Notes: a model not told the origin generated them from the sequence alone. A stretch of 39,525 nucleotides of DNA from Minisyncoccia bacterium (GCA_049298975.1 JBAQWP010000095.1:1-39525); one strand, 5' to 3'; positions 24,040-27,000 are shown, numbered from the stretch's first letter. Numbers and translations are program-made.

Positions 24040-24215
24040 TCGAATTTAAAAAACTCGTCTTCATGCAGAATAACTTCTGCACAAGGACGAGTTTTTCTCG
24101 TGGTACCACCTTGTTTATCCTGCATAGCTTTAGCGACGCAGGGCTCATTACTGCTATAACGGGCTTACCCGCCCAGTTCTACTCGCCAACAATATTGTCG
24201 ACTTTCTTCCAGGTA
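24040..24215 (-). promoter_or_regulatory. T-box riboswitch leader of ileS
   Basis: Minus strand has aacaaGGUGGUACCACGag (24117..24100), one mismatch to the GGUGGUACCGCG T-box core. It is followed by the terminator aaaaactcgtc...gacgagtttttt (24098..24051) and overlaps an alternative antiterminator pairing. The specifier codon is not identified. Confidence 0.65.
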
Positions 24216-24227
24216 GCTCGGGGGTGA

Positions 24228-25262
24228 TTAGTCCCCTCTTACGCTTACTTTCAGAATACCAGAAAAAAACTTTTGCTTCAATCCCCAAGTACTCCCATGA
24301 CTAAGTAATCCCAAGTATGACTGAACTATTTCTCTGCTTGGATTATCTTGCAGTTTCTTCTTCATCCTCCTCTTTGTACTCGTCCTTAGTACTCTGTGAT
24401 ATGGAAAATGTACAAATCCAAGAAAATCTGCTCCTGAAGAGAGTGTTTCGATTGTGACTTTATTTGGGTGAAGTTTAAGTTTCAAATTGTTTTTTAGATA
24501 TATTGCGATATATCGCAATATATTAGTGAGATAGTTTTTATCTTGGGAAAGGACGACGAAATCATCTGCATATCGAATATAGTGTTTTAGTTTCAGCTCT
24601 TGTTTTACATATTGGTCAAACTCATTCATGTAGATGTTTACTAGGAGTTGGGAGGTGAGGTTGCCTAGGGGTAAACCTTTCATATCATGCGATATATCGC
24701 ATGATATGAAATTGGGATTAGTAGTATTAAAGCTTGAGATGACCTGGCTCAGTAACCAGAGAGTGTCGGGGTCTAGGTTGTGATACTTCAGGATGCTGAG
24801 TAGTACTTCGTGATTAATACTTGCAAAGAACTTCCTTACATCACACTTTAGTACCCAACATTGTTTTGTATTGTTTTGACTTACCCTTCTGCCAAAGTCT
24901 CTAAACCTGTTCATGGCACTGTGTGTTCCTTTCCACTTTCTGCATGAGTAGGAGTCGTAGATGAACTTCTTGTCGAAGTGTGGGTAGAGCACTCTGTAGA
25001 TAGCGTGATGAAACAGTCTGTCTCGAACTGTTGCTTTGTGAATGTTTCTTGGTTTTGGGTCGGAGATGTTGAATGCGTGGTAGGGGCCATGGGTGTAGGT
25101 TTTATTTTTCAAATCTTGGTGAAGGTTGTAAACATTTTCTGAAAGGTTTAAAGAAAACTCCATTACATCCTTTTTATGTTTCTTGCCTTTTTCAAACTCT
25201 TCCCAAGCTGAAAATAGGTTTTCAAGCGATACTATTTCTTTGAAAAAATCTTTCTGTTTCAT
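24228..25262 (-). CDS. DGR-type reverse transcriptase
   Basis: 344 aa. The catalytic YADD is encoded at 24561..24572. Motif 4 LGNLTSQ (24648..24668) fits the DGR-specific [ILV]GxxxSQ signature. There is no maturase or endonuclease extension. Confidence 0.9.
   Translation of the reverse strand: MKQKDFFKEIVSLENLFSAWEEFEKGKKHKKDVMEFSLNLSENVYNLHQDLKNKTYTHGPYHAFNISDPKPRNIHKATVRDRLFHHAIYRVLYPHFDKKFIYDSYSCRKWKGTHSAMNRFRDFGRRVSQNNTKQCWVLKCDVRKFFASINHEVLLSILKYHNLDPDTLWLLSQVISSFNTTNPNFISCDISHDMKGLPLGNLTSQLLVNIYMNEFDQYVKQELKLKHYIRYADDFVVLSQDKNYLTNILRYIAIYLKNNLKLKLHPNKVTIETLSSGADFLGFVHFPYHRVLRTSTKRRMKKKLQDNPSREIVQSYLGLLSHGSTWGLKQKFFSGILKVSVRGD
24498..24523. repeat. 26-bp perfect palindrome inside the RT gene
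   Basis: atatattgcgata|tatcgcaatatat; shares the core tgcgatatatcgca with the second palindrome. Confidence 0.9.
24678..24711. repeat. 34-bp perfect palindrome inside the RT gene
   Basis: tttcatatcatgcgata|tatcgcatgatatgaaa; encodes ..FISCDISHDMK.. immediately N-terminal to RT motif 4. Confidence 0.9.
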
Positions 25263-25268
25263 GTTAAA

Positions 25269-25682
25269 ATGCTAACTAAATTAAAACACAAAATAACTAT
25301 GAATGTATCCCCCCCCCGAGAAGCACCTAGGGTTTTAGTAAAAGAGAAAGAGGTATACAAATACTGGGTTACACTCCATAGAGACTTTCCAAAAGTAGAA
25401 AGGTTTGGAATAGGTCAAAAAATTGAGCAAAGTTTTTTGGATTTACTTGAGCTTACTTTTACATCCGTGTATCTTTCGCCAGAACAAAAAATAGTCTTAC
25501 TTGGTAGAACTATTGCAAAAATGGATAACTTAAAATTTTTCATGCAACTAGCTTGGGAAGCCAAACTCATACCAACAGATAAATTTGCAAAGATTTCTCT
25601 GGACTTGGAAGAAATAGGGAGAATGCTGGGTGGATGGAGAAAGGGATTACTAGAGAAAATACAAAAAACTCCGACCGCCTAG
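25269..25682 (+). CDS. avd: Avd-like accessory variability determinant (four-helix-bundle / 23S rRNA intervening-sequence protein family)
   Basis: FPKVERFGIGQKIEQS helix-1/2 motif and C-terminal EEIGRMLGGWRKGL (compare the Bordetella phage Avd EVGRILGSWI motif). The alternative start is 25299. A C9 tract lies at 25309..25317. Confidence 0.8.
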   Translation: MLTKLKHKITMNVSPPREAPRVLVKEKEVYKYWVTLHRDFPKVERFGIGQKIEQSFLDLLELTFTSVYLSPEQKIVLLGRTIAKMDNLKFFMQLAWEAKLIPTDKFAKISLDLEEIGRMLGGWRKGLLEKIQKTPTA

Positions 25683-25698
25683 CCGGAGAAAAATTAGA

Positions 25699-25816
25699 GT
25701 TTCGGGATCACGATGCGATGACGATACTTGCCATTCCAGACGTTCGAGTTCGAGAACCGGTTGACGTTGACGTTCAGATCACGATCATCGACATTCACGT
25801 TCGCAACGAAGATTTT
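25699..25816 (-). repeat. DGR template repeat (TR), noncoding
   Basis: 118 bp aligning without gaps to 26164..26281 (offset 465). 98 positions are identical; all 20 mismatches are T on the + strand, which is A on the minus strand, in this copy. In the target frame it carries six AAC codons at variable positions. Confidence 0.92.
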
Positions 25817-26081
25817 GTGTGATAGTCCCTCCTTGCCACCACCTCTCGAAAAATATCTCGAGGTTGAATTTTACTTGGGACATACAAGTCCACCAGACTA
25901 CCACACCAACTATTTATTTTTTTATTTTATGAAAAAATATCTCCACTCTTTTGCAAGGCAAATCTGAACGCAACCCGACAAAACTCTTGAAAACATTCTC
26001 ATACACCATATTACTGAAGCCTTAACCGCAGTAAACATATGAATGCATCTTAAATTTTATATAATTTTTTACAAAACAAAA

Positions 26082-26122
26082 GCCCTCTGGCACCGACGCG
26101 CGTTGCGTAAGTGTCAGAGGGC
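26082..26122 (-). terminator. GC-rich hairpin plus U-run 3' of the target gene (terminator and/or DGR target-recognition hairpin)
   Basis: gccctctggcac (26082..26093) pairs with gtgtcagagggc (26111..26122): 12 bp with one G-U. It is followed on the minus strand by ttttgttttgt and lies about 40 nt 3' of the VR end. Confidence 0.6.
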
Positions 26123-26152
26123 CAAGGGAACAAAGGGACAGAGCGCCTAGTT

Positions 26153-26806
26153 TCAGGCGGTCTGTTGCGGGACCACGAAGCGATGACGATACCTGCCAAG
26201 CCAGACGAACGAGCGCGAGAACCGGTCGACGTAGACGTACAGATCACGAACAACGACAATCACGCGCGCAACGAAGAGGTTCGAGAGGTCGGGTAGCACA
26301 TTCGGTCCGACCTTGAAAATGAAGAATGTGCCAAATCCCTCCGTACGGAGCTTGTCGCGATGGTCTTCGCAGAACGCGATGACCTGCTTTTGGGTCAAGA
26401 CAAGCTCCGCGATCGGCCTCCCGACCGATTCAAAGATGGTCTGAAAGTTTCCGTTCTGGACCATCTCATGGATCTCGACGATCTGCTTGGGCGTCGTCGT
26501 TTCGTCGAGTTCATCCGTACCCCACGCAACGAAATCGGAGTCGATGTGGCCTGAGAAAACACGGTCTGCGTGAGCAATCGTGCCAGCCCCAGCCAGACGA
26601 CGGATGCTGATCACTTCACCCTCGTACAGACGATGGAGTACACTCTTCATTTTCGGCGCATCGGCTTGGCCTTCGAGCCACGCCTTGATAAGACGCGAGC
26701 GCCCTTCCTCGCCCAGCATGTTGACCTGCTCAGCTGTCAGCCCGTCATCTGCGAACTTGCCGAAAACAAATATCATCTGCTCGATCGAATACGGAAGTGG
26801 AGACAT
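26153..26806 (-). CDS. DGR target protein (217 aa, high GC, no signal peptide, no recognisable C-type lectin motif) with C-terminal variable region
   Basis: The ORF track has 26153..26827 with a GTG start. ATG at 26806 is preferred because of aaaggatggggacgATG (SD plus 8 nt). The VR covers the last roughly 40 codons. Confidence 0.85.
   Translation of the reverse strand: MSPLPYSIEQMIFVFGKFADDGLTAEQVNMLGEEGRSRLIKAWLEGQADAPKMKSVLHRLYEGEVISIRRLAGAGTIAHADRVFSGHIDSDFVAWGTDELDETTTPKQIVEIHEMVQNGNFQTIFESVGRPIAELVLTQKQVIAFCEDHRDKLRTEGFGTFFIFKVGPNVLPDLSNLFVARVIVVVRDLYVYVDRFSRSFVWLGRYRHRFVVPQQTA
26164..26281 (-). repeat. DGR variable repeat (VR)
   Basis: Counterpart of the TR. Encodes ...NLFVARVIVVVRDLYVYVDRFSRSFVWLGRYRHRFVVPQ; the TR frame reads ...KIFVANVNVDDRDLNVNVNRFSNSNVWNGKYRHRIVIPK. 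Confidence 0.92.
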
Positions 26807-26971
26807 CGTCCCCATCCTTTCAGGCACATCGTGCCATTGCTGGCTCAGCGTTATGCTTTGCCACAGCAGAGAAAATCCTCAAAATTGTTACCTTTAGGGC
26901 ACTTTCTGCTATAGCAAAACCCAGACAAACCACTATTTCTCATAAAAATTCAAAGATCAAATTACACAATA

Positions 26972-27000
26972 ATTATATACCTATGTACAGCTTTTGTCAA
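26972..27000 (-). promoter_or_regulatory. Consensus sigma70 promoter driving the DGR target gene
   Basis: Minus strand: TTGACA (27000..26995), exactly 17 nt spacer, TATAAT (26977..26972). It sits about 165 nt upstream of the start codon. Confidence 0.6.

Follow-up and report, generated by a model that had tools for sequence, protein, structure and literature searches.

Bacteria of the Candidate Phyla Radiation (CPR) hold a very large share of natural diversity-generating retroelements (DGRs). To our knowledge, all that is understood about the mechanism of these elements comes from a single phage element, in which the scaffold RNA lies 3′ of the template. Here, we describe a DGR located in an AT-rich contig of a member of this radiation, the patescibacterium Minisyncoccia bacterium (GCA_049298975.1 JBAQWP010000095.1:1-39525). 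The whole stretch examined, 39,525 nucleotides (nt), is referred to as the window. Two described systems serve for comparison. The RNA of Bordetella phage BPP-1 consists, in this order, of strand a of the stop duplex, the template repeat (TR), an Avd-binding stem-loop, the primer strand (A56), strand b of the stop duplex, a small stem-loop, adenosines, a thumb ring and the stem that binds the reverse transcriptase (RT) (Handa et al. 2018 PMC6182149; bioRxiv 10.1101/2023.10.23.563531). The other system is the gene arrangement known as Architecture B3, TR-(avd)-RT, which according to Wu et al. 2018 (PMC5758913; Nucleic Acids Res 46:11) makes up 90% of the DGRs from CPR in the set studied there.

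The genes and repeats of the locus, including the variable repeat (VR) located in the target open reading frame (ORF), are as follows.

26827..26153, minus strand: DGR target gene, 224 amino acids, with VR at its 3′ end
26277..26164, minus strand: VR, ending 9 nt before the stop of the target ORF
25816..25699, minus strand: TR, a near-repeat of VR
25299..25682, plus strand: avd gene (bAvd family), 127 amino acids from the homologous start, with an in-frame ATG upstream at 25269
25262..24228, minus strand: DGR RT gene, 344 amino acids (RVT_1, E 1.5e-25), with LPLGNLTSQ and YADD in the translation

The locus is a DGR. The RT carries the [I/L]GxxxSQ-type motif of the DGR clade together with YxDD, its residues G200-Q205 are invariant in 29 relatives, and it shares 63-74% identity with many RTs from Paceibacteria/Patescibacteria, which are annotated as Zambryskibacteria, Nomurabacteria and Paceibacterota. 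VR occupies the 3′ end of an ORF, and the avd ORF (25269..25682, plus strand) matches the Pfam family bAvd (PF22296) with E 2.5e-13 and 50.9 bits versus a cutoff of 40. When TR and VR were compared in register, 20/20 mismatches were T on the plus strand of TR, i.e., adenines on the minus strand, an A-to-N pattern that is the trace of historical mutagenesis. Since all the differences are at minus-strand adenines, the template RNA is minus-sense and is transcribed from the same strand as the target and RT, as had been proposed in the original prediction, which was made from the nucleotide sequence of the window alone. On this strand the order is target with VR, a spacer of 336 nt between the target stop and TR, TR and RT, and avd lies on the plus strand between TR and RT. 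The inversion of avd was thus confirmed, and the ORF, the Pfam match and the repeat comparison reproduced every coordinate that had been assigned to it. The target gene and TR are far more GC-rich than their flanks.

The position of avd had been considered unusual. The layout of related loci was determined in two samples. The first was the DNA around 33 further RT matches in the genomes of relatives, which included 27 loci with both avd and RT visible. The second was taken from one genome per GTDB species and added 80 loci from many CPR lineages, 70 of them with the upstream flank. All 27 loci of the first sample had avd inverted directly upstream of RT, TR just past the avd stop and the A-strand of TR on the RT strand, and the same layout with an inverted avd was found in 69 of the 70 loci of the second sample. 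In the lone exception (L121), a second cassette is present in the opposite orientation. This layout, shared by ~95 related Patescibacteria loci, corresponds to Architecture B3 of Wu et al.: the order and orientation are identical (target-VR, TR, reverse-strand avd, RT), the host is likewise a member of CPR/Patescibacteria, and there is no difference in layout. The arrangement is therefore the norm in CPR. With its B3 layout, the locus belongs to the CPR/Patescibacteria DGR clade as an ordinary member, and there is nothing new in the layout as such. The leader RNA, 3′ hairpin and promoters, which are the subject of the following analysis, are not described in the searchable portion of that article.

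We propose that the template in this ordinary B3 CPR DGR is a separate non-coding RNA of ~390 nt with a structured 5′ leader, and that no long antisense overlap is needed. We assign to this reading a probability of roughly 60%. The elements on which it is built are listed in the order of transcription of the minus strand.

26082..26122, minus strand: GC-rich hairpin of 12 base pairs (bp) with a U-run behind it, located 3′ of VR and of the stop of the target ORF; putative terminator and/or VR-proximal DGR hairpin
26063..26054, minus strand: probable -10 of the TR-RNA promoter (TATATAAAAT), which matches the conserved position relative to leader domain D2; predicted transcription start site (TSS) ~26047
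26036..25908, minus strand: leader domain D1, composed of hairpin Pa (26033..26012) and long hairpin Pb (26000..25933)
25907..25932, minus strand: A-rich single-stranded linker between the D1 hairpins and D2
25817..25906, minus strand: leader domain D2, a three-way junction with P1 (25906..25895 with 25828..25817, 12 bp), P2 (25891..25878) and P3 (25864..25841)
25688..25669 (hairpin) and 25668..25660 (U-run, UUUUUUGUA), minus strand: conserved 3′ hairpin plus U-run, 10 nt after TR, spanning the avd stop codon

The conserved RNA is a ~230-nt leader located 5′ of TR, which comprises Pa, Pb, the A-rich linker and the three-way junction. In D2, helix P1 encloses the small hairpin P2, an A-rich stretch that comes after P2, and hairpin P3. 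The 3′ strand of P1 ends at 25817 and TR begins at 25816, i.e., the helix abuts the 5′ edge of TR exactly. In a MAFFT alignment of 40 sequences, 95.3% of the cells of the D2 helices were paired, versus 71.9% when shuffled and 34-52% when the partners were slid, and 17/20 pairs had changes on both sides. A covariance model, R1, was built from this alignment and searched in the related loci and genomes. It found D2 directly upstream of TR in 88 loci (90 matches), and over these 90 sequences 95.7% of the cells were paired and 18/20 pairs were compensatory. Matches to R1 were present in 18 of 61 genomes of relatives; 17 of the 18 have a DGR RT, and the two elements are ~550-700 nt apart where both could be mapped. 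In D1, the loops of Pa and Pb are both of the YGRYYACGGYUU type and both hairpins show clear compensatory changes. Folding the leader of the window as a single sequence gave the same helices (z -2.8). The leader has a covarying structure and is linked exclusively to DGRs. Two genomes of ~0.6-0.7 Mb (G010 and G019) carry as many as 4-5 DGR RT loci, and every one of these is accompanied by a leader element of its own. In another locus (L088), two copies of the leader and two of avd lie inside 2 kb.

On the 3′ side of TR, a hairpin flanked by U-runs is found on the RT-sense strand in ~70/80 loci, with a median distance of 12 nt from TR. The consensus reads UUU-CUCYCC...GGRGAG-UUUUGUUUU, with stems mostly of 8-10 bp and loops of 4-5 nt. 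The hairpin of the window has 8 pairs (5 GC) and the tail TTTTTTGTAT, and it was scored as terminator-like by a pattern scan. The inner stem positions occur as several pair types and are 88-100% paired, versus 43-75% with the partners shuffled, which indicates covariation. The avd stop (25680-25682) is 16-17 nt from the 3′ end of TR in the window; in the related loci it falls within the hairpin in 40 cases, on its 5′ side in 34 and on its 3′ side in 6. The gap between TR and the avd stop varies between -2 and 91 nt, whereas the hairpin keeps its place. The hairpin is, therefore, fixed to TR and not to avd. A GC-rich stem followed directly by a U-run is the form of rho-independent terminators, and this form is conserved in the relatives. 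In addition, Handa et al. predicted an Avd-binding stem-loop (9 bp, tetraloop) just downstream of TR in 207 of 278 Avd-type DGRs. The 3′ hairpin thus has the form of an intrinsic terminator and also that of an Avd-binding stem-loop. A pairing of the TR 3′ motif with the U-run after the hairpin was also considered and set aside as unproven. The association, with counts of 31 for (GCNA,G), 17 for (GAAA,C) and 9 for (GAAA,G), has a mutual information of 0.28, no higher than that of arbitrary leader columns, and is inseparable from the lineage signal, with only 4 well-supported independent contrasts.

The spacer between VR and TR is conserved in an alignment of 73 loci and its length is kept (~320-390 nt). 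Its elements are, in this order, the terminator hairpin of the target, an extended -10 that is position-specific, and the ~230-nt leader. The hairpin with its U-run recurs in this alignment at the position of 26082..26122. The sequence TGnTAnnnT is present 110-170 nt upstream of D2 in 44/84 loci, 39 of which have it at 110-129 nt. The candidate TR promoter of the original prediction, at 26035..26008 (TTTACT and TAATAT), had to be abandoned: its hexamers are the two arms of the covarying hairpin Pa, where unrelated sequences in relatives still pair, and the position-conserved -10 sits ~25 nt further upstream.

According to the proposed reading, transcription of the TR RNA would start at the -10 located just after the target terminator, proceed through the leader and TR, and end at, or at least be punctuated by, the hairpin and U-run, whose overlap with avd is limited to the stop codon. 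The functions of the scaffold, which in BPP-1 belong to the 140-nt spacer RNA (Sp), would reside in the leader. P1 would act at the 5′ edge of TR like the BPP-1 stop duplex, accompanied by a small stem-loop and an A-rich stretch in the BPP-1 order, the A-rich linker 5′ of P1 would pair with the 3′ flank of TR like the template:primer duplex, and the 3′ hairpin would correspond to the Avd-binding stem-loop. We infer in this way the promoters, the transcript ends, the termination at the hairpin and the equivalence with BPP-1, and the functions suggested for the RNA elements derive from their form, position and covariation.

Both systems combine an RT and Avd with adenine mutagenesis, and have a ~9-bp stem-loop just 3′ of TR. 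They also resemble each other in form in that a duplex abuts the 5′ edge of TR and its strand is followed by a small stem-loop and adenosines (here P2 and AAGUAAAAUU). The arrangement is different. While in BPP-1 avd is located upstream and on the same strand, here it is found between TR and RT on the opposite strand. In BPP-1, the elements that bind the RT and the partner strand of the stop duplex are 3′ of TR, whereas here the partner strand lies ~95 nt upstream, in the 5′ leader, and the order is A-rich linker, P1 strand b, stem-loop P2, adenosines, P3, a purine-rich single strand, P1 strand a, TR, hairpin and U-run. A ~140-nt structured Sp of the BPP-1 type was not found 3′ of TR, where the flank consists only of the hairpin and U-run and the place of the Sp is taken by the antisense of avd. 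The argument that the RNA arrangement must for this reason differ from the Bordetella paradigm found support. The accompanying suggestion of a very different priming RNA was probably right in spirit and misplaced in its location, since it is the leader upstream of TR that covaries and the antisense of avd shows no consensus structure. By analogy, P1 looks like a stop duplex whose partner strand comes from upstream, and the other leader elements may be functionally equivalent to those of the BPP-1 Sp.

The A-rich linker is complementary in the clade to the U-rich segment located between TR and the 3′ hairpin. In the best register (AAAUGAAG with CUUCAUUU, main subfamily) 77% of the cells were paired versus a background of 37 +/- 11%, and the duplexes formed by the linker and flank of the same locus averaged -4.3 kcal/mol versus -2.4 for cross-locus combinations. 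Three positions of this linker:flank helix change on both sides. This complementarity is suggestive of a clamp or a primer strand that pairs with the 3′ flank of TR. A more far-reaching proposal, which we advance tentatively and at somewhat less than even odds, is that the whole Sp-equivalent (primer strand, stop-duplex strand, stem-loop with adenosines and protein-binding hairpins) moved 5′ of the template in B3/CPR DGRs. The product would be an autonomous ~390-nt RNA with a leader that clamps both ends of TR and primes cDNA from a leader nucleotide, and the RNA would end at a terminator inside the 3′ end of avd.

The leader also shows a weak match to a described RNA motif. D1 aligns to the whole model of the Rfam family RT-9 (RF03080; positions 1-92 of 92) with 33.2 bits and E 6e-4, under the gathering score of 46.1, and has in common with it the GGUUACGGCUU-loop hairpin as well as the UUCAAGAG box. 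Neither the three-way junction D2 nor the 3′ hairpin is covered by RT-9. This family belongs to the RT-1..RT-19 group of orphan "RT motifs" of Weinberg et al. 2017 (PMC5737381), in which RT-10 is the BPP-1 Sp and the others were speculated to serve DGRs. No Rfam family was found at its gathering score anywhere in the window.

The way in which RT is transcribed bears on the alternative that fares best, which we regard as unlikely. It states that TR and RT share a single transcript of the minus strand, antisense to the whole of avd, that the role of the hairpin is limited to that of a protein-binding stem-loop or leaky attenuator, and that the transcript forms a regulatory loop with the avd mRNA. 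The original prediction saw no room for a divergent promoter because the first in-frame avd ATG (25269) is 6 nt from the RT start codon. Throughout the clade the avd and RT starts are tightly head-to-head or overlapping (median spacing ~0, range -36 to +57, with starts that abut or overlap in most loci), which speaks for a single transcript, as does the fact that a pattern scan detected no strong sigma-70 promoter for RT. The window itself has more space than had been assumed. In a reading of the aligned relatives, their Avd starts 5-6 codons before the conserved PPP (the C-run), as M-T-x-x-x-(A)-PPP. Therefore, the homologous avd start in the window is ATG 25299 (MNVSPPP), 36 nt from the RT start, and this gap has extended -10-like motifs on both strands.

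25262..25270, plus strand: extended -10-like motif TGTTAAAAT for avd, with its TG taken from the CATG of the RT start codon
25288..25280, minus strand: extended -10-like motif TGTTTTAAT, 17 nt upstream of the RT start

The plus strand of the gap reads caTGtTAAAAT (25262-25270), and caTGnTAnnnT recurs at the avd side in 10/79 loci, which constitute the subfamily of the window. The close subfamily has TGTTnTAAT at the place of TGTTTTAAT. Judging by these motifs, the 36-nt gap probably holds compact divergent promoters that overlap and from which avd and RT are transcribed, which argues against a single transcript. A hairpin of terminator form with its U-run conserved right after TR argues in the same direction, with the caveat that intrinsic terminators are rarely complete and read-through is plausible. 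In favor of the alternative, convergent transcripts may overlap at TR. On the avd-sense strand P3 is followed by a U-rich tail that has a terminator-like score (25844-25863, plus strand). Transcripts of avd, a gene that lacks a U-run terminator at its own stop, may cross the whole of TR in antisense and end at this tail. A single transcript would leave the 230-nt covarying leader unexplained and is further disfavored by the lack of RNA-level conservation in the antisense of avd.

This last observation bears most directly on a second and improbable alternative, dual coding, in which the antisense of the 3′ half of avd would itself serve as a priming RNA similar to the Sp of BPP-1, with the difference that it overlaps a gene. 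The position matches that of the BPP-1 Sp, and the putative stop duplexes of Handa et al. use the 100 nt downstream of TR in many Avd-type DGRs, CPR included. A codon alignment of 91 avd genes was used to calculate the synonymous-codon entropy relative to background. The values were ~0.8-1.2 throughout avd, including the C-terminal MLGGW block and the last 47 core codons, with a drop in only two places: the last few tail codons (0.23-0.46), where the U-run and hairpin lie, and the PPP codons near the N-terminus (0.05-0.24). In the 91 sequences, RNAalifold produced 0 pairs over the 141 nt of antisense avd located after the hairpin. Beyond the tail-codon hairpin, there is no RNA-level conservation in the antisense of avd. 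Dual coding is also at odds with the variable gap between TR and the avd stop next to a hairpin that is fixed to TR, and with the strong covariation of P1, in which the segment just upstream of TR is already paired. The obligatory sense/antisense overlap that had been predicted did not find support either, since the sole conserved RNA element 3′ of TR is the ~30-nt hairpin plus U-run at the avd stop. A pairing of the GGUGG..GGAUGG of D2 with antisense avd (CCAUCCACC) was rejected, as it is not matched by the sequence of the window and the Gly codons show no constraint. Finally, an assembly inversion or another artefact has a negligible probability, since the comparison of gene order with related DGRs showed the same orientation in ~95 independently assembled loci from many studies, the literature agrees, and no point in its favor was found.

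Several points weigh against the reading of the template as a separate RNA with a 5′ scaffold. The TSS, the 3′ end and the termination are all predictions, and the window's own TR promoter lacks the TG extension. In loci where the avd and RT starts overlap or abut, either the RT promoter must lie inside avd or RT must be reached by read-through of the hairpin, so that some antisense transcription of avd may take place. The match of the window to RT-9 is below threshold, and RT-9 was not found at the gathering score in any of 20 related loci. As for the clamp, the statistics given above are without correction for phylogeny, and the linker:flank duplex of the window amounts to only -0.9 kcal/mol and consists of A-U pairs only. 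Moreover, the stop duplexes predicted by Handa et al. in many DGRs, including those of CPR, form between the 40 nt upstream and the 100 nt downstream of TR, a partner different from that of P1.

The 5′ end of avd includes a C9 run (25309-25317), a G-run on the RT strand, which is conserved at the nucleotide level, as reflected in the entropy of the PPP codons. Runs of 7-11 G are present at the avd/RT junction in 27/35 measured loci, and in other loci the position is taken by different simple repeats, namely (GA)n (L080 and L091), (CT)n (L106 and L107), (GT)n (L133) and, in L118, a very long run of C. From their sequences, the C-run and simple repeats look like a slippage-prone switch for Avd across the clade. 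The G-run was considered as a possible Shine-Dalgarno sequence for RT; its spacing is 13 nt in many loci but ~46 nt here.

The target gene (26153..26827) had no match to a Pfam family. Its VR codes for an alternating N-V-N-V pattern, also without a Pfam match and unlike the typical VR of the C-type lectin kind. Upstream of the gene there is a perfect 12/12 sigma-70 consensus, TTGACA-17-TATAAT (26972..27000, minus strand). Between the target stop and the terminator hairpin (~26123-26152, minus strand), VR is followed by 3-5 short repeats, CCCUUUG / CCCUUGG / CCCUCUG, and a repeated CTT.G pattern after VR is also seen in the 73-locus spacer alignment. At the other end of the locus, a T-box-like leader (GGUGGUACCACG) for ileS (24040-24227, minus strand) starts right after the RT stop and has no Rfam family at the gathering score.

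In CPR DGRs, the scaffold supported by covariation sits on the 5′ side of the template, with only a minimal flank on the 3′ side. It is this RNA, and not the gene layout, that matters for the biology of DGRs. If the Sp-equivalent did move to the 5′ side of the template, these elements would have a rearranged version of the sole solved DGR ribonucleoprotein, which would explain why avd could be inverted. The analysis defines a concrete RNA construct (26047..25660, minus strand) for the reconstitution of a CPR DGR, with which the supply of the stop and priming functions from the other side of the template can be tested. Stop and priming from that side bear, in turn, on the engineering of compact DGR-based mutagenesis tools.

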